DNA of 63,470 nt, the filler included, from Candidatus Omnitrophota bacterium (GTDB lineage: Bacteria > Omnitrophota > Gorgyraeia > Zapsychrales > JBDRMG01), in assembly GCA_043812495.1 (NCBI GenBank). It is 7 parts of 5 records of this genome, joined end to end, with 100 filler letters (N's around TTAATTAATTAA, not from the genome) between each part and the next. Parts side by side here need not be neighbours in the genome. Positions count along the whole stretch, not along the records: positions 6,195 to 28,992 come from JBDRMG010000004.1; 6 more parts are not named here. One strand, written 5' to 3'. The notes under the pieces are model-generated. The model was given only the letters and a program-made list of their open reading frames with translations, ran no database searches and was not told the DNA's origin. How positions within the stretch are numbered: the stretch's first letter is position 1; the number at the start of each line of letters is the position of its first letter. Both the position numbers and the translations under genes were made by a program. Below, piece by piece: positions 6,090-24,184 of this stretch.

Positions 6090-6195
6090 GAACCNNNNNN
6101 NNNNNNNNNNNNNNNNNNNNNNNNNNNNNNNNNNNNNNTTAATTAATTAANNNNNNNNNNNNNNNNNNNNNNNNNNNNNNNNNNNNNNNNNNNNA

Positions 6196-7350: not shown

Positions 7351-8431
7351 ATAGGGGACGTTGATTAAAGTATTAAAGTTATTGACAACGACAATAAATG
7401 TTGATAAGTTATTCCCATGCCAAGACAAGCTCGCTTAGATTATGCGGGAGCCCTCCATCATGTAATAGGTCGTGGCATTGATGGCCTATACATTTTTAAA
7501 TCTAAACGGTCTAAACAAGAATTCCACCAACGCTTACGATCATTGCTTAAAGAAAGCAGTCTACAGATATATGCCTGGTCGATTATGGGCAATCATTTTC
7601 ATTTGTTGCTGCAAACCGGCAAAACCAGTTTATCGGAATTTATGCGCAAACTTTTAACAGGATATGCCATTTATTACAATAAAACACAGAAAAGAAAAGG
7701 GTATGTGTTCCAAAATAGATATAAGTCAATTTTGTGTGAAAAAGATGAGTATTTATTGCCATTGATCCGCTATATTCATCTCAATCCAGTGAAAGCCAAG
7801 ATTGTCGAAATAGATCAATTAGAAAAATACCCCTGGACGAGCCATGGAGAAATTACGAAAGAAAAACCAGAAGCGTTGATTAATCGGGTGGAAGTCTTGA
7901 GCTATTTTGGCAACACAAAGAACAAGGCCAAAATATGCTATGAGAAATATGTCAAGGAGGGATTGGATCTTAAAGAGGATTATATGGGAGGAGGGTTAAT
8001 CCGCAGCCTAGGTGGCTTAAAAGAATCGTTTCGCATATCCAAAGAAGACAGGCAGACTTATGATGAGCGCATCTTAGGATCAGGGCAATTCGTTGAGCAT
8101 GTTCTCAAAGATGCCGATCAGGAGGAGCAGAGCCAACAGGTTTTTAAAGACATGAATGATCTTCTTAATCGCACGGTACGATATTATAAGGTCAAAAAAG
8201 ATGATATACTTTATTCACGTACAAAACCGGTAAGGGAAGCTCGTTGTGTGGTAATATTTTTGGCCAATCAATATCTAAAATGCAGTGCAACAAAAATCGG
8301 AAGTATTTTGAGAATGAAACAAGCGGCATCTAGTATTGCTAGAACAAAAGGACAGAAAGCAGTAGAGAAAAAAGGATTACTCAAAAGATTAACAAACTAT
8401 AAACATTAATGAATTAATCAACGTCCCCTAT
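7351..8431 (+). mobile_element. Element bounded by perfect 18-bp terminal inverted repeats, carrying a RAYT-like gene
   Basis: ataggggacgttgattaa (7351-7368) is the reverse complement of ttaatcaacgtcccctat (8414-8431). Confidence 0.85.
7417..8409 (+). CDS. RAYT-like Y1 HUH transposase with C-terminal DnaA_C-like helical domain
   Basis: MPRQAR...HHVIGRG, MGNHFHLL (HUH), G.VFQNRY, RYIHLNPVKA, YPWTSH. Confidence 0.88.
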   Translation: MPRQARLDYAGALHHVIGRGIDGLYIFKSKRSKQEFHQRLRSLLKESSLQIYAWSIMGNHFHLLLQTGKTSLSEFMRKLLTGYAIYYNKTQKRKGYVFQNRYKSILCEKDEYLLPLIRYIHLNPVKAKIVEIDQLEKYPWTSHGEITKEKPEALINRVEVLSYFGNTKNKAKICYEKYVKEGLDLKEDYMGGGLIRSLGGLKESFRISKEDRQTYDERILGSGQFVEHVLKDADQEEQSQQVFKDMNDLLNRTVRYYKVKKDDILYSRTKPVREARCVVIFLANQYLKCSATKIGSILRMKQAASSIARTKGQKAVEKKGLLKRLTNYKH

Positions 8432-9567: not shown

Positions 9568-9987
9568 ATGAGAAATTACGAGCTGCTCGACCATACTGCT
9601 GATTTAGGATTGCGCGTGTTTGGTGCGGATCTCAAAGAATTATTTAGAAATGCGGCCGAGGTGCTTTTTGATATCATCGCCAAGAAAACGAACTCCAAAC
9701 ATCCGCTTGTCACAACATCGGTTAAAATCGATTTAACGGCGGAAAATATCGACGAGCTTTTTGTGCGGTGGCTTTCGGAGCTAGTTTCTTTGGCGGACTG
9801 CGCACATGTCATCTTTGTTGAATTTGATATTCATGCTATGGGCGAAACACATCTTGAGGCAACCGTTCAAGGAGCTCCCGCTCGACAGTTTACGGGCAAG
9901 CGCGAAATCAAGGCTGTGACCTATTGCAATCTAAAAATTCAAAAGCAAGAGGGCCGCTACATAGCCGAAGTTATTTTTGATGTCTGA
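9568..9987 (+). CDS. Archease (RtcB cofactor)
   Basis: YELLDHTADLG, EIKAVTY, C-terminal IFDV. Confidence 0.93.
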   Translation: MRNYELLDHTADLGLRVFGADLKELFRNAAEVLFDIIAKKTNSKHPLVTTSVKIDLTAENIDELFVRWLSELVSLADCAHVIFVEFDIHAMGETHLEATVQGAPARQFTGKREIKAVTYCNLKIQKQEGRYIAEVIFDV

Positions 9988-11449
9988 TATGGTAACCGAA
10001 CAAATAAAAATTCCTCTAGAGAAAATCGATGATTGCCGCTACCGCATCCCGAAGTCTTTTAAAAAGGGCATGCGCGTAGACGGAATGGTCTATGCGAACG
10101 AAGAACTTTTGAAGGACATCTTCAAGGACAAGGCCATCGAACAAGTGATCAATGCGGCTTTCCTGCCGGGAATCGTTGGCCACTCCATGGCCATGCCGGA
10201 TGTGCATTGGGGTTATGGTTTTCCCATCGGCGGTGTTGCGGCCACAGATTTAAATAACGAAGGCGTAATTTCACCCGGCGGAGTCGGTTTTGATATTAAT
10301 TGCGGCGTGCGCTGCATGCGTTCTGAATTCGTGCTCGATGATATCAAGGATCATGTCCCGACATTGATGAAAGTATTGTTTCGCAATGTTCCTTCCGGCG
10401 TGGGATCAACAGGCAATCTTCGCCTTAAGAAAGAAGACGAAAAAAGACTTTTGCGCGAGGGATCCAAGTGGATCGTGCAAAAAGGATTCGGCACGCAGGA
10501 CGATTTGGAGGCGACGGAAGACGAGGGCGCGATTGCAGGCGCTAACCCCGAGGCTGTATCCGAGCGGGCCTATGCGCGAGGGAAGGATCAGGTCGGAACT
10601 TTAGGGAGCGGAAATCATTTTTTGGAAATCCAGGTGATCGATGAGATTTATGACGAGGACGTTGCCCGGGCTTTGAATCTTTTCAAGAATCAAATCACTG
10701 TGATGATCCATTGCGGCTCGCGGGGTTTAGGGCATCAGATTTGCGATGATTACTGTCGCATCATGGACCAGGCGATGAGAAAGTATTTGATTTCTATGCC
10801 GGATCGGCAGCTCGCGTGCGCGCCCGTCAAGTCCCGGGAAGGAACGGATTATTTGGGGGCCATGCGCTGTGCGGCCAATTATGCTTGGGCCAACCGTCAG
10901 TTGATTATGCACAAGGTGCGCGAATCTTTCGAAGCAGTTTTTAAGAAAAGCTGGACAAACATGGGATTACAATTGGTCTATGATGTGGCCCACAATATTG
11001 CTAAAATTGAAAAGCACGATGTCGACGGTCAGGGCCTGTCTCTGTGCGTTCATCGCAAAGGCGCGACGCGGGCTTTTCCTCCCGGTCATCCGGCGTTAGC
11101 GAAACGTTATCAGGCAATCGGACAGCCGGTGATTATCCCCGGCGATATGGGACGAAATTCCTATTTGCTTGTTGGGCAAGAAAGCGGGGCCGAAACATTT
11201 TATTCCTGCTGTCACGGGGCCGGACGGGTAATGTCGCGTATGCAGGCCAAAAAAAGATTTCATTACGGAGATATCATCAAAGATCTAAAAGCCAAAGGTA
11301 TTACACTTGAAGCCCAATCGGCCAAGACGGTGACCGAAGAGGCGCCTCTTGTCTACAAGGATGTTACGGAGGTTGTCGGCGTTGTGCAAAAAGCCGGTTT
11401 AGCCAAGAAGGTCTGCCGGATGCGCCCATTGGGTGTTATGAAAGGATAA
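9980..11449 (+). CDS. rtcB: RNA ligase RtcB
   Basis: [44 protein letters not shown]. Confidence 0.96.
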
Positions 11450-12746: not shown

Positions 12747-13349
12747 ATGAAGGAAAAATTCCTTATCGTCTTAAAATTTATTATTTTTGTTTGCCTGATC
12801 CCGGTTGTGATAGCCGCCACAAGAGGTTTTGTGGAGCAAATGAGCAGTATCCCCGATGTCTTGCGCGCGTTCTTCTTGTGGGGGATATTTGTCTATATCT
12901 TTGTTCATGTTTTTATTTGTGAACCGAAAGAACTCTATGCGTATGGGCAAAAAATTGTTTCGCAAATCTTCAGGTTTTTTGCGCCGCTTGTGGAAGTCGC
13001 GCCGTATTTCCTGCCGATTTACGCGATCCTTCTTTTGATCATATTTTATTTTGTAGTGTTGATTTTTAAAGCCGGCGAATACGGCCGGTATTTTATGTTT
13101 ATGCTGAGTTTCTTTTTGACCATGCATTTTACCTTTACGGCCAAGCAATTGCGCGCGAAAGAAGAGAATGCCCTGAAACCGAATTATTTCTTCTCGATAT
13201 CGATTATTTACATTGCTAATATTGTACTGCTTTCTCTTTTTCTGGATTTGATTATCGACAGCTTTTCGTTCGTTGAGCTTTTCACGGCCATCACCCGGCA
13301 GACCGAAGGGATTTATTCGACAATATTTCATCAGTTGTTCTTGTCATGA
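12747..13349 (+). CDS. Hypothetical membrane protein
   Basis: Several TM helices, APYFLP motif, in the serS operon. Confidence 0.6.
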   Translation: MKEKFLIVLKFIIFVCLIPVVIAATRGFVEQMSSIPDVLRAFFLWGIFVYIFVHVFICEPKELYAYGQKIVSQIFRFFAPLVEVAPYFLPIYAILLLIIFYFVVLIFKAGEYGRYFMFMLSFFLTMHFTFTAKQLRAKEENALKPNYFFSISIIYIANIVLLSLFLDLIIDSFSFVELFTAITRQTEGIYSTIFHQLFLS

Positions 13350-13562
13350 AATTGACAATCGCTTGGTTTAATGGTAGGATTTGGCGGATTATTGATATTT
13401 AAGCATTAGGATTAAAGATGCTGGGCTCAGCCTCGCCCAAGGCAGGGCTGAGCCTCGACAAATAGGCATATAAAAGAATATAAGGGACCGGCGCCCTGCC
13501 TTACGGCAGGGCGGTGAGTCTCGGCAATTTTTTAGCAGTATTGAAGATTAGGAAAAATTGCC

Positions 13563-13734
13563 GGAGAAGTGGCAGCCCGTCATTCCGTTTTCGCGGAATG
13601 ACGAGGTCTCGGCGAATTTGCATTACAAATTCGCCGGAAGTGGTAGTTCGCCCATTCAAAATTTGTAATTTTAAATGGGCGAGATCTCGCCATTTCGTCT
13701 TTTGACGAAATGGCGGAAATGCGACGGTCTCGAA
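13563..13734 (+). pseudogene. tRNA-Ser 5' half (anticodon CGA) split by two double-hairpin insertions
   Basis: 13563-13575 + 13639-13646 + 13718-13734 join to GGAGAAGTGGCAGAGTGGTAGAATGCGACGGTCTCGAA, 35/38 identical to 13781-13818. Confidence 0.85.
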
Positions 13735-13780
13735 CCCCGCACCAATTCTTGTTATTTGATTTTTATGCAATAAGAAGTTT

Positions 13781-13869
13781 GGAGAAGTGGCAGAGTGGTT
13801 GAATGCGGCGGTCTTGAAAACCGTTAGGGGCCGTGAGGTTCCTCGAGGGTTCGAATCCTTCCTTCTCCG
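13781..13869 (+). tRNA. tRNA-Ser(UGA), no encoded CCA
   Basis: GGAGAAG/CTTCTCC acceptor stem, CT-TGA-AA loop, long variable arm, GTTCGAATC T-loop, G discriminator. Confidence 0.95.
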
Positions 13870-13994
13870 TTCTTCTTCGCTCAAACACTTTCATGTTTGA
13901 GCTTCGAAGCAACGTCATCCTTTTAAAAGAGCGGAGAAGAACGTTTCTGCGAAGCGCATACCATATTTTAGTATTAAAGCGCGAAGCAGAACGC
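13868..13994. mobile_element. Cargo-less tRNA 3'-end CGAAG element
   Basis: IR 13868-13882 / 13929-13943 (14/15), then a hairpin at 13945-13994 nearly identical to 24082-24132. Confidence 0.75.
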
Positions 13995-14174
13995 TATTTT
14001 TAACATTTGATCGGAAATGACCTTCTCAAAAGAAGACATTTCTATTTTGCCTTGAACTCAAAAATTTTTCTTGCCAGAAAGGCTGATCAGTAATAAAATA
14101 GTGCACACTTGACACTTAACATCCCAAAGGCGGTGATGTGTATGTGCATTGTATATAAAAAAATTGAGAAATTT

Positions 14175-19820: not shown

Positions 19821-19889
19821 ATAAATAAATTCTAAAATCGAGATCACTCGCCTTGACAATATATTTTAAGAAGAGCTTGGGAATTTTTC

Positions 19890-19967
19890 AATAGGGAATA
19901 GGCTAAGATGAATGGAGAATGCTTGGCCGGCCCCGCCTTTGGGCGGGGCCGAGCCTTGGCAAATTTT
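19890..19967 (+). repeat. tRNA-upstream module, near-identical to 23533-23610
   Basis: aatagggaataggct.agatgaatggagaatg.ttggccggccccgcc-loop-ggcggggccgagcct.ggcaa. Confidence 0.85.
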
Positions 19968-19997
19968 CCCTAAATTAAGTAATTGGAAAATTTGACG

Positions 19998-20083
19998 GGA
20001 GAGGTGCGAGAGCGGTTGAATCGGGCGGTCTCGAAAACCGTTGTCCCTTCTGGGGATCCTGGGTTCGAATCCCAGCCTCTCCG
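19998..20083 (+). tRNA. tRNA-Ser(CGA), no encoded CCA
   Basis: GGAGAGG/CCTCTCC acceptor stem, CT-CGA-AA loop, variable arm, GTTCGAATC. Confidence 0.95.
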
Positions 20084-20231: not shown

Positions 20232-20243
20232 GCCGTTGGTGAT

Positions 20244-20290
20244 ATGTATGTCGTTTATATTCTACAAAGTTTGAAGGAGCCTGGCCATTG
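20244..20290 (+). pseudogene. N-terminal remnant of a GIY-YIG nuclease gene
   Basis: MYVVYILQSLKEPGH matches MYIVYILKSTKFPERH of 23820; the second (YVG) motif is absent. Confidence 0.65.
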
Positions 20291-20421
20291 CCTTATTTTT
20301 TTACTAAAGGAAGAATCTAAAAAAGGCAAGATTTTCCAGCCCTTCCAATTAATTTCTAAAATGTAGGAAATTTTCATAAAGTAAGCTATAATATTTTTGA
20401 ATATTTAATATTAATATAATT

Positions 20422-23465: not shown

Positions 23466-23645
23466 AATAACATAAGCGGGAATAACCTTGGATGTCCCTG
23501 CCTTGGGCGGGGCCGAGTCTCGGCAAATTTTTAATAGGGAATAGGCTTAGATGAATGGAGAATGTTTGGCCGGCCCCGCCCAAAGGCGGGGCCGAGCCTC
23601 GGCAATTTTTCAAGAAATATTTTAAGGCATGAGAGAAAAATTGCC

Positions 23646-23734
23646 GGAGAGGTGGCTGAGCGGTTGAAAGCGCACGCTTGGAGAGCGTGTGGCGGCCGAA
23701 AGGTTGCTCGAGAGTTCGAATCTCTCCCTCTCCG
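23646..23734 (+). tRNA. tRNA-Ser(GGA), no encoded CCA
   Basis: GGAGAGG/CCTCTCC acceptor stem, CACGC-TT-GGA-GA-GCGTG arm, variable arm, GTTCGAATC. Confidence 0.95.
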
Positions 23735-24132
23735 TTCTACTTCGCCTTTCAACAATGAAAAATATGGTAAAGGCTTCGTAGAACGAGTTATGAGAATTTA
23801 AAGACAATAGGCGTTTTATATGTATATTGTTTATATTCTCAAAAGCACAAAGTTTCCTGAACGACATTATGTTGGTATAACGCAAGATTTAGCAAGAAGG
23901 CTCAAGGAGCATAATAGCGGCGATATCGAGTATAGCAGTCGATATGCCCCGTGGGACGTTGAAACATTTGTTACCTTTCGCAATAAACGACTTGCTTGCG
24001 ACTTTGAAAAATATCTTAAGGCCGGCTCGGGACATGCTTTCCTGAAGAGGCGATTATTTAGCGAAAAGGCGAAGTAGAACGTTCTGCGAAGCGCGTACCA
24101 TCATTTAAATATTAAAGCGCGAAGCAGAACGC
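23733..24132 (+). mobile_element. tRNA 3'-end CGAAG element carrying a GIY-YIG gene
   Basis: Perfect 17-bp IR 23733-23749 / 24065-24081 brackets the gene; hairpin unit at 24082-24132. Confidence 0.8.
23820..24077 (+). CDS. Small GIY-YIG nuclease (YhbQ/UPF0213-like)
   Basis: VYIL...HYVGIT.DL.RRL.EHN.G, A..FEKYLK.GSG. Confidence 0.9.
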   Translation: MYIVYILKSTKFPERHYVGITQDLARRLKEHNSGDIEYSSRYAPWDVETFVTFRNKRLACDFEKYLKAGSGHAFLKRRLFSEKAK

Positions 24133-24184
24133 CGTTATTAACAATCGAGAAAACCTCTTGACGTAACAATAAGGTAAGAAAGCT

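Follow-up and report, generated by a model that had tools for sequence, protein, structure and literature searches.

Within the window analyzed here (63,470 nt, filler included, from a Candidatus Omnitrophota genome), the front part of a tRNA-Ser gene at positions 13563–13734, interrupted by two short inserts, precedes an intact tRNA-Ser(UGA) gene. The evidence supports the interpretation of this stretch as a DNA-level relic, i.e., a copy put out of action by truncation and the insertion of micro-elements, next to a tandem copy that still works. This was one of two readings offered in a preliminary description, and it is strengthened by empty paralogous sites of the inserted elements and by the recurrence of comparable structures. 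Overall, we assign a probability of roughly 0.6 to a scenario in which the relic and a replacement UGA copy arose via a GIY-YIG-type cassette that targets tRNA genes, with mobile double-hairpin elements as the inserts. For annotation, 13563–13734 should be labeled a pseudogene fragment and neither a split nor an intron-bearing tRNA.

The tRNA-Ser relic, its inserts and its leader

Excision of the two inserts, E1 (63 nt, after GGCAG) and E2 (71 nt, after GGTAG), joins three pieces (Table 1) into 38 nt, of which 35 match nucleotides 1–38 of the intact tRNA-Ser(UGA); recomputation thus returned both the identity and the CGA anticodon given in the preliminary description. The first piece is identical to 13781–13793 (13/13), and the third matches the intact gene at 15 of 17 positions. 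The three mismatches are a D-loop base, the first base of the anticodon stem, and anticodon base 34, where a T to C change in the relic produces the CGA anticodon. The copy ends in the anticodon loop, as had been described, just past standard position 37, and only nt 1–37 are present after excision. Neither ARAGORN nor Rfam reports a tRNA within 13563–13734, which does not form the complete cloverleaf of a functional tRNA gene. The relic is nevertheless undecayed: once fused in silico to the 3' portion of the intact tRNA-Ser(UGA), it is recognized by ARAGORN as tRNA-Ser(cga). ARAGORN also detects another, intact tRNA-Ser(CGA) gene at 19998–20083.

Table 1. Features of the relic locus and related features elsewhere in the window, in window coordinates.
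Feature	Position	Strand	Description
RAYT-like Y1 transposase with DnaA C-terminal HTH fusion	7417..8409	+	Pfam Y1_Tnp 42.1 bits; candidate mobiliser
Promoter-like site	13352..13380	+	TTGACA, 17 nt, TAGGAT; consensus scan, 10/12 matches
E0, leader double hairpin	13488..13565	+	family-like skeleton CCG-hairpin-GTGAGTCTC-hairpin-GGA; last three bases are relic nt 1–3
Relic piece 1	13563..13575	+	tRNA-Ser nt 1–13; acceptor strand, positions 8–9, D-stem 5' strand
E1, double-hairpin element	13576..13638	+	CCC-hairpin-GAGGTCTC-hairpin-GGA; family skeleton; D-loop 5' edge, between G and A
Relic piece 2	13639..13646	+	D-loop nt 14–21; 7/8 identical to intact gene
E2, double-hairpin element	13647..13717	+	TTC-hairpin-GAGATCTC-hairpin-GGA; family skeleton; D-loop 3' edge, between G and A
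Relic piece 3	13718..13734	+	D-stem 3' strand, anticodon-stem 5' strand, loop to position 37; anticodon CGA
Spacer, relic to intact gene, 46 nt	13735..13780	+	fold z −0.78
Intact tRNA-Ser(UGA)	13781..13869	+	ARAGORN; Rfam 58.6 bits
Gene-less GIY-YIG cassette remnant	13868..13943	+	starts at tRNA-Ser(UGA) 3' end
Cassette right-end module	13925..14005	+	terminal repeat and second hairpin; 87% identical to 24064–24143
GIY-YIG gene, 85 aa, intact	23820..24077	+	directly 3' of tRNA-Ser(GGA); Pfam GIY-YIG 47.9 bits

The boundaries of E1 and E2 cannot be shifted by one base, so neither target duplication nor loss accompanied either insertion, in agreement with the clean insertion after GG(C/T)AG noted previously. 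As single-stranded DNA, both inserts are predicted to fold into two hairpins (E1, −25.4 kcal/mol, z −8.5; E2, −27.5 kcal/mol, z −9.35), with none of 200 shuffles as stable in either case, and they appear as independent hairpins in the predicted MFE RNA fold. Chance is an inadequate explanation for either insert, as their ends coincide with those of an independently found genome-wide repeat family, and the second half of E1 recurs with 90–92% identity over 39 nt at two sites in the related genome G007. Searches of Rfam with E1 and E2 returned no intron or ribozyme, either at the gathering threshold or at E values up to 5; a group I intron was rejected on the grounds that Rfam matched no ribozyme core and that the inserts comprise just 63 and 71 nt.

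The third hairpin that had been proposed to run from the end of the relic into the intact gene was not upheld, with the 46-nt spacer folding at only −2.1 kcal/mol as DNA, a stability equaled by 45 of 200 shuffles. No likeness of the spacer to the cassette or the hairpin family was detected, and its identification as a truncated double-hairpin member was rejected when its likeness to left halves of the family was equaled by 51 of 200 shuffles. Based on the arrangement in the related locus L024 (see below), the spacer may be a leftover of a cassette body.

The leader similarity initially described for tRNA-Ser(GGA) is real and extends further, with ~130 nt common to the relic and the CGA, GGA, and GCT tRNA-Ser genes and missing from the intact UGA gene. 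Within it lies the double hairpin E0 (DNA fold −23.9 kcal/mol, z −5.8), to which the leaders of these three genes are homologous; compensating changes affect its first hairpin in the alignment. On the plus strand, the interval from the upstream ORF to the intact tRNA gene contains a single promoter-like match (Table 1), which, judging by sequence, could drive the tRNA as well as the relic. Transcription probably includes the relic in the 5' leader of the precursor to tRNA-Ser(UGA), from which it would be discarded. The predicted RNA fold of 13563–13870 has the acceptor strand of the relic base-paired with the 3' terminus of the intact gene. A public RNA run matched the conserved part of the tRNA only, with foreign flanks.

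A family of mobile double-hairpin elements

E1 and E2 belong to a repeat family with the fixed skeleton YCC-hairpin-GAGRTCTC-hairpin-GGA, in which the hairpin sequences are interchangeable. The genome contains 30 strictly delimited copies, compared to four in a shuffled genome, and 39 copies under a looser definition, compared to two after shuffling, while a pattern scan recovered 34 forward and 31 reverse matches (reversed-pattern controls, 0–1). The pattern is present in 16 of 41 genomes from the same order, with the source genome counted. The elements are mobile, as evidenced by empty paralogous sites for three of the 30 strict copies (with one substitution over 28 nt; a fourth candidate is a weak match). 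At all ten junctions that could be defined by an independent reference, consisting of E1, E2, five T-loop insertions, and three copies at a paralogous site, insertion occurred between G and A (G^A) on one strand. The T-loop insertions fall between T55 and C56 in the 3' parts of relics on contigs C51, C21 (two), C57, and C14. The left flanks end in GCAG, GTAG, TTCG, TTTG, and AGTG, with the final G alone constant, and a target-site duplication of the kind expected for a DDE-type MITE was absent from all ten reference-defined junction pairs.

Most members of the family are located far from tRNA genes, with six of 39 within 150 nt of one, and proximity to GIY-YIG genes is similarly rare (one of 39 within 100 nt and two within 1 kb). 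Across genomes, the number of family members has a modest correlation among kin with the number of GIY-YIG genes (Spearman 0.45), compared to 0.27 for Y1 genes. A search for the same inserts in other RNA genes found them in tRNA relics. The tmRNA gene is free of family members (nearest, ~1.9 kb away), and the gene for RNase P RNA has its full length (374 nt for a 367-position model; 74.7 bits, under the gathering score of 100). Genes for rRNA were absent from the assembly. In silico excision of 44 family elements genome-wide uncovered no additional tRNA gene; one tRNA-Gly call was lost in this procedure where a loose element boundary overlapped the gene.

GIY-YIG cassettes and tRNA relics in the genome and its relatives

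Small GIY-YIG genes tend to accompany tRNA genes in this genome, with 10 of 15 having a tRNA or tmRNA gene no more than 600 nt away, and encode a bare domain of ~85–130 aa without a DNA-binding extension. The product of the intact gene following tRNA-Ser(GGA) has weak likeness to the structures of Slx1 (E 0.014) and UPF0213 (E 0.082), with GIY-YIG as its only Pfam match. A cassette frame is present 3' of all three tRNA-Ser genes on the contig: it is intact after tRNA-Ser(GGA), gene-less after tRNA-Ser(UGA), and less clear after tRNA-Ser(CGA), where just a short stretch resembles the start of the nuclease gene. The same frame contains an intact GIY-YIG gene after tRNA-Ser(GGA) here and after tRNA-Ser(UGA) in G007. 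The gene-less remnant retains 15-nt terminal inverted repeats (13868–13882 and 13929–13943) and an inner hairpin (13872–13909), and the counterpart of its right-end module, 24064–24143, sits after the intact GIY-YIG gene. No nuclease gene is present between the relic and the intact tRNA-Ser(UGA), and the locus offers only the gene-less frame that follows the latter.

Contigs C10, C14, C29, C50, C54, C57, and C66 contain partial copies of tRNAs next to the parent genes. On C66, an old tRNA-Asp copy split by a hairpin is followed by a GIY-YIG gene and then an intact tRNA-Asp, and on C51 a GIY-YIG gene is bracketed by two 5' copies of tRNA-Thr.

Comparable loci recur in other Omnitrophota. In L024, serS is followed by a relic of nt 1–44, a GIY-YIG ORF, and an intact tRNA-Ser(UGA), with hairpins in the relic at 12/13 and 35/36, the first of which is inserted at A^G and not G^A. 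A double hairpin at 21/22 in L007 occupies the E2 site, a hairpin after G13 in L129 occupies the E1 site, and L025 contains tandem 5' halves broken at position 36; no GIY-YIG ORF was seen at these three relic loci, with the sequences of L007 and L025 partly masked. Short 5' copies upstream of tRNA-Ser(UGA) occur in several genera, ranging from 9 to 44 nt, and both the relic length and the hairpin sequences differ in every genome compared. The search covered 40 relatives from the same order or family only. The best relatives by serS are 56–75% identical, and a metagenome scan using the adjacent ORF returned a single locus at 43% identity. At such distances, no orthologous empty or singly filled site can be aligned, and no such allele was found among the relatives or the contigs from public reads. 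The organism occurs at a depth of ~2 in three groundwater DNA runs, the contigs of which cover 13148–13571 and 13866–14034, with nothing within 13572–13777 and none spanning the inserts.

In the favored course of events, 13563–13734 is the non-functional front half (nt 1–37) of an earlier tRNA-Ser gene and has kept the native leader of that gene. The tRNA-Ser(UGA) located 46 nt downstream would be the replacement, most likely brought or copied in by a GIY-YIG-type cassette whose nuclease gene has since been lost from the relic locus. The inserts are mobile, non-autonomous double-hairpin DNA, placed between G and A without duplication, presumably by a hairpin-moving enzyme, with the exposed loop edges of hairpin-forming DNA (D loop and T loop) as targets. 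As insertions would be lethal in working tRNA genes, the elements would survive only in redundant relics.

A wider reading, which we put forward tentatively as a possibility, is that the Omnitrophota harbor an undescribed, active selfish element of tRNA genes that cuts at loop edges, replaces part of the gene, and plugs the displaced part with hairpins. A bare Slx1-like GIY-YIG cassette would cut tRNA genes at the loop edges and substitute its own copy, which here would have switched a CGA gene to UGA, and the displaced part would be plugged at G^A by interchangeable double-hairpin elements. The plugs would destroy the target of the nuclease and thereby render the locus immune. Few sequences in biology are as conserved as tRNA genes, which makes them ideal landing sites for selfish DNA, and integrases are known to exploit them. 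The literature searched contained no bacterial account of a nuclease-plus-hairpin system that overwrites tRNA genes and leaves hairpin-plugged relics. If true, this reading would account for the scattered tRNA fragments that confuse the annotation of uncultured genomes, would represent a route to anticodon replacement, and would make G^A-specific hairpin elements and small single-domain nucleases, each with defined DNA targets, accessible to bench tests.

Alternative explanations and known systems

Rather unlikely, in our assessment, is an origin without a cassette, in which slippage or unequal recombination duplicated the 5' half and unrelated REP-like hairpins moved by a Y1 transposase landed there by chance, an event explained by the 5' half already being dead DNA. 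The genome has seven Y1_Tnp matches, one of them the RAYT-like gene located 6 kb upstream; the absence of target duplication is a hallmark of single-strand Y1 transposition, as performed by IS200/IS605 elements; and both the lack of a nuclease gene at the relic locus and the position of most family copies away from tRNA and GIY-YIG genes fit such an origin. However, the family member nearest to any of the seven Y1 matches is 5.7 kb away, and the RAYT-like gene (NCBIfam REP-associated tyrosine transposase, 64.7 bits, under the cut-off of 80) is flanked by different terminal repeats of its own, 16-nt inverted repeats that are not family members. Further, two genomes with family matches (G008 and G011) have no Y1 match, relics in other genera are hit at the same D-loop positions, contrary to what random landing would produce, the target appears to conserve a single G compared to 4–5 nt in IS200/IS605, and family counts follow Y1 less closely than GIY-YIG counts. 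Also improbable is that the relic and its hairpins were co-opted as a functional leader of the tRNA-Ser(UGA) precursor, serving as a signal for processing or stability, or as a decoy with an acceptor strand that competes for the 3' half. Such a role could be read from the sole promoter-like site lying upstream of the relic, the intact UGA gene without the conserved leader, the undecayed relic and its tRNA-Ser(cga) call, the predicted pairing of its acceptor strand, and the short 5' copies upstream of tRNA-Ser(UGA) in several genera. Against it, relic length and hairpins vary from genome to genome with no sign of conserved function, the relics of many other tRNAs in the genome resemble debris, and the acceptor-strand pairing is a prediction only.

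Removal of the hairpins at the RNA level, the second reading in the preliminary description, is highly improbable and did not survive the searches made here. In such a process the hairpins would be excised from the transcript and the halves joined by RtcB and archease into tRNA-Ser(CGA). The break does fall at 37/38, the canonical site of introns, a functional tRNA could accommodate each of the three differences from the intact gene, and RtcB and archease are encoded 2–4 kb upstream, as had been stated, while nothing ties either to the relic locus. Nonetheless, no free 3' half was detected (blastn search of the entire bin, 90% complete, with the three tRNA-Ser genes at word size 7), leaving that of the intact gene as the sole 3' half for the relic. 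A tRNA-splicing endonuclease was not found in the same bin (PF01974 unmatched at E 0.1, with four archaeal genomes matched as a control), and no Rfam intron or ribozyme family matched. An intact tRNA-Ser(CGA) already exists, excision of 44 elements revealed no hidden tRNA, and the occurrence of the same elements in non-RNA DNA with empty paralogous sites indicates movement as DNA. It is also hardly credible that a repeat-rich stretch was mis-joined in the metagenome bin. The public contigs (depth ~2) leave 13572–13777 uncovered and the inserts without independent coverage; set against this, the inserts are shorter than one read, the tRNA pieces are in perfect register once the inserts are removed, and similar structures are present in other genomes that were assembled independently.

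The proposed origin of the relic through a tRNA-targeting cassette and mobile hairpins has partial parallels in several known systems. Split and multi-intron tRNA genes occur in the Archaea (Nanoarchaeum, Caldivirga, and the Thermoproteales), and share with the relic a 5' half that breaks off at 37/38 and additional D-arm insertions; they differ in that the host here is a bacterium (with a tmRNA), the inserts are mobile as DNA, and neither a splicing endonuclease nor a separate 3' half was found in the bin. Double-hairpin elements (DHEs) are repetitive hairpin elements of fungal and sponge mitochondria, reportedly first described in Allomyces. Like the present family, they consist of two adjacent hairpins and are small and dispersed, with evidence of mobility that includes insertion into RNA genes, whereas they are organellar and, as far as can be told, unrelated in sequence; we know of no DHE with a GAGRTCTC core or in a tRNA-relic context.

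Among GIY-YIG proteins, Ssn is a single-domain, single-stranded DNA nuclease of ~90 aa that pairs with the NTS/SRM hairpin repeat, copies of which are scattered through the genome and border the nuclease gene (Chenal et al. 2025, PMC11893778). The combination of a small single-domain GIY-YIG and a dispersed hairpin repeat is similar to that found here, whereas neither targeting of tRNA genes nor formation of gene relics by Ssn is reported there. The published SRM motif (PMC11893778) had seven hits in the genome, compared to 4–14 in ten shuffles, and overlapped none of the 39 elements.

The family also resembles the REP/REPIN/BIME repeats and their RAYT partners in being short, abundant, gene-less paired hairpins that multiply within one genome, here together with a RAYT-like gene. 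As in REP/REPIN repeats, many dispersed short palindromic copies were found (30–39, compared to 2–4 after shuffling); the RAYT gene flanked by repeats that defines a REPtron was not found at any of the seven Y1 matches (nearest member, 5.7 kb). The prevailing view of REP/REPIN/BIME repeats is that they transpose as single-stranded DNA and leave no target duplication. Unlike these, the family here retains YCC, GAGRTCTC, and GGA around interchangeable hairpins and is linked to the loops of tRNA genes. IS200/IS605-derived PATEs likewise have subterminal hairpins and clean insertion without target duplication, as observed here. IS200/IS605-type elements insert 3' of a conserved 4–5 nt target, whereas the junctions compared here appear to share G^A alone and neither a TnpA nor a TnpB partner was identified.

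Free-standing GIY-YIG homing endonucleases occur in tRNA gene clusters, such as SegB of phage T4. The small GIY-YIG genes beside tRNA genes in this genome are reminiscent of them, and partial tRNA duplications bracket a nuclease gene, as expected from repair-mediated copying. A nuclease gene adjoins its (duplicated) target on C66, at tRNA-Ser(GGA), in L024, and in G007, with the relic locus having only the gene-less frame. The genes here differ from homing endonucleases in being chromosomal and bacterial, not phage-borne, and in encoding a predicted nuclease with a bare Slx1/UPF0213-like domain that has no DNA-binding extension; further, hairpin elements here split the displaced tRNA copy.

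A hairpin-split tRNA-Ser relic

The source of the window is one metagenome bin of 66 contigs (1.94 Mb, 44.5% G+C), in which window positions 6195–28992 are contig C4. The closest relatives of serS are labelled Omnitrophota, and no close relative of the bin was found among the genomes and metagenome loci searched. ARAGORN and Rfam identified three tRNA-Ser genes in the window, and neither called a tRNA at the relic, the interval upstream of tRNA-Ser(UGA) that the preliminary description had parsed as a 5' half split by two inserts. That parse was reproduced, with the three pieces joining to 38 nt with anticodon CGA, identical at 35 of 38 positions to the 5' end of the intact UGA gene. The match to the tRNA-Ser(CGA) gene of the window is weaker (30/38), and among the tRNA-Ser genes of relatives the best match is a CGA isoacceptor (34/38). 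The relic is undecayed: supplied with the 3' part of its neighbour, it is recognised as tRNA-Ser(cga). One of its three differences from the intact gene turns a G-U pair into A-U.

The two inserts (E1, 63 nt; E2, 71 nt) each fold into two hairpins (z = -8.5 and -9.35, respectively), and their boundaries cannot be shifted, so that no bases were duplicated or lost, in keeping with the clean insertion first described. A third hairpin proposed after the break, at 13735–13780, proved not to be significant (z = -0.78, with an equal fold in 45 of 200 shuffles), and no resemblance of this stretch to the hairpin family was found. The relic with its inserts, both read and computed, is real.

All of the tRNA-Ser genes except the intact UGA gene have a homologous leader of ~130 nt. 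The relic has it as well, which extends the short leader match to tRNA-Ser(GGA) noted before, and the lack of it at the intact UGA gene argues that the relic marks the original gene. The leader closes with a double hairpin resembling the family, the last GGA of which forms nt 1–3 of the tRNA; across all four tRNA-Ser isoacceptor loci it retains two hairpins with compensating changes and a conserved block (AATAGG...GATGAATGGAGAATG), and could serve as a promoter or processing signal or represent an old element.

Features of the tRNA-Ser region and related loci (window coordinates unless a contig or locus is named; 'upstream' and 'downstream' in the L and G rows refer to the intact tRNA-Ser(UGA))
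Feature	Position	Details
tRNA-Ser(UGA)	13781–13869	ARAGORN + Rfam
tRNA-Ser(CGA)	19998–20083	ARAGORN + Rfam
tRNA-Ser(GGA)	23646–23734	ARAGORN + Rfam
tRNA-Ser relic	13563–13734	pieces 13563–13575, 13639–13646, 13718–13734
tRNA-Ser leaders	13400–13565; 19835–20000; 23483–23648; C51:3180–3380	
Archease + RtcB	9568–11449	two overlapping genes immediately 5' of serS
Y1_Tnp plus DnaA-C-HTH gene	7417–8409	330 aa; perfect 16-nt inverted repeats at 7351–7366 and 8416–8431, ATAGGGGACGTTGATT
Nuclease-start remnant	20240–20300	starts ATGTATGTCGTTTATATTCT
T-loop copy	C51	behind tRNA-Arg
T-loop copies (two)	C21	behind tRNA-Met
T-loop copy	C57	behind tRNA-Pro(GGG)
T-loop copy	C14	behind tRNA-Pro(CGG)
L024 upstream		serS, relic of nt 1–44 (containing a 20-nt palindrome at 12/13, a double hairpin at 35/36), then 88-aa GIY-YIG ORF
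L024 GIY-YIG ORF (Omnitrophota MAG)	5407–5673 in L024:5273–5725	88 aa; between hairpin-split tRNA-Ser relic and intact tRNA-Ser(UGA)
L007 upstream		double hairpin at 21/22 (E2 site)
L129 upstream		hairpin after G13 (E1 site)
L025 upstream		tandem 5' halves broken at position 36
G007		9-nt 5' copy upstream; intact GIY-YIG gene downstream

A mobile double-hairpin family

Searching both strands for a 9-mer core gave 100 hits. Most are built alike, with YCC at one end, GGA at the other and, between them, two hairpins, each closed by G...C, on either side of GAGRTCTC. A strict definition recovered 30 copies in the genome and 4 in a shuffled genome, and a looser one 39 and 2. A pattern scan, in which palindromic cores are counted twice, returned 34 forward and 31 reverse matches here and found matches in 16 of the 41 genomes of the order, this one included (20 in G007, 9 in G004, 8 in G017 and 7 in G034; 0–1 for reversed-pattern controls), counts that are minima because the strict pattern skips slight variants such as E1 and E2. 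Copies share a fixed skeleton, but their hairpin sequences vary and reappear in new pairings; the second hairpin of E1 recurs in G007. Family members also occur ~100–600 nt from many contig ends (both ends of C20, and C39, C63, C32, C6, C9, C56 and C66), and these repeats, or a larger element containing them, probably break the assembly.

For three of the 30 strict copies, an empty paralogous site exists that differs by a single substitution over 28 nt; a fourth such match is weak. Another five copies interrupt the 3' parts of relic tRNAs, in each case splitting the T loop between T55 and C56. Ten junctions are fixed by an independent reference (E1, E2, the five T-loop copies and the three filled copies of a paralogous site, four distinct kinds of site), and all ten read G^A on one strand; the family moves as DNA, inserting cleanly between G and A. 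A tRNA gene lies no more than 150 nt from six of the 39 copies, one of which abuts the 3' end of tRNA-Gly.

The preliminary description had weighed a tRNA gene killed by repeated insertion and replaced by a tandem copy against hairpin 'introns' removed at the RNA level. The RtcB and archease genes invoked for the latter are indeed upstream, but no link between the pair and the relic was found. A sequence search of the whole bin gave no free 3' half for the relic, no tRNA-splicing endonuclease domain was found in the bin (90% complete), no intron or ribozyme was matched by Rfam, and rescanning the genome with 44 elements excised gained no new tRNA, all of which make RNA splicing very unlikely. 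The presence of a separate intact tRNA-Ser(CGA) gene in the genome also speaks against it. The DNA-level reading is the right one, the empty paralogous sites showing that the inserts are mobile, and 13563–13734 is a relic and not an interrupted working gene.

GIY-YIG cassettes and the candidate mobiliser

RAYT-like Y1 transposase genes show no association with the family: at least 5.7 kb separate each of them from the closest family member, the local Y1 gene is flanked by its own terminal repeats, and two genomes with family matches have no Y1 match. The perfect repeats around the local gene suggest a separate small mobile unit. Three more Y1 matches are in open frames of 221–334 aa on C2, C45 and C47.

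GIY-YIG genes are present in all 41 genomes, and their number tracks that of family members to a modest degree (Spearman 0.45, versus 0.27 for Y1), which is weak evidence as the genomes are kin. Many family copies are in a sequence also found upstream of a GIY-YIG gene, and just one copy has such a gene no farther than 100 nt away. On balance we lean towards a mobiliser tied to the GIY-YIG cassettes. By sequence, the nearest solved structures to the nucleases are, weakly, Slx1 and UPF0213. Ssn (PMC11893778) is the nearest functional analogue; the published Ssn/SRM motif is absent from these elements and not enriched in the genome.

A common cassette frame, starting at the discriminator base, follows all three tRNA-Ser genes of C4. 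After the GGA gene it carries an intact GIY-YIG gene of 85 aa; after the UGA gene it is gene-less, and 13925–14005 there shares 87% identity with the cassette end at 24064–24143; and after the CGA gene it is less clear, with only a short stretch left that resembles the start of the nuclease gene. This remnant resembles the opening codons of the GIY-YIG gene at 23820 before stopping short, and gives the contig a second degenerate cassette. Of the 16 GIY-YIG matches in the genome, 15 are small, and 10 of these have a tRNA or tmRNA gene no more than 600 nt away. A full-length RNase P RNA match (C29:14709–15082; 74.7 bits, below the Rfam gathering score of 100) lies 1.5 kb from a tRNA-Val/GIY-YIG cluster.

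Recurrence at other tRNA loci

Although no close relative was found, other Omnitrophota show the hairpin-relic architecture again at tRNA-Ser(UGA). In L024, the GIY-YIG frame enters the intact tRNA, its stop codon being the anticodon TGA, and two tandem tRNA-Ser(GCT) relics have the same palindrome at 12/13. Hairpin positions are shared across different genera with unrelated hairpin sequences, and each relic is near-identical to its own neighbouring gene; together, the shared positions and near-identity suggest recurrent, site-selective and fairly recent events and not to one ancient accident. No bacterial account of hairpin-split tRNA relics with GIY-YIG cassettes was found in the literature searched, where matches for the double-hairpin element and for GIY-YIG/tRNA/hairpin were almost all from organelles or viruses and nothing relevant was found on Patescibacteria or MITE/T-loop. 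The relic with its inserts is one case of a wider phenomenon that is apparently undescribed.

Within this genome, partial tRNA copies occur beside their parent genes on C10, C14, C29, C50, C54, C57 and C66. On C51, a GIY-YIG gene is bracketed by two tRNA-Thr 5' copies, and on C66 an old tRNA-Asp split by a T-loop hairpin is followed by a GIY-YIG gene and then the intact tRNA-Asp. At C54:380–640 (minus strand), a copy of nt 7–32 lies upstream of the intact tRNA-Cys and one of nt 33–65 downstream, as if a segment with a whole new tRNA-Cys had been inserted in the anticodon loop of an older gene. At C10:32660–32900, 46 nt separate the intact tRNA-Phe gene from an upstream copy that is identical to it over nt 8–54 and whose first seven bases read as a diverged acceptor strand; inverted repeats of 16 nt (GATTCGGCATGATGGC and its complement) enclose the intact gene.
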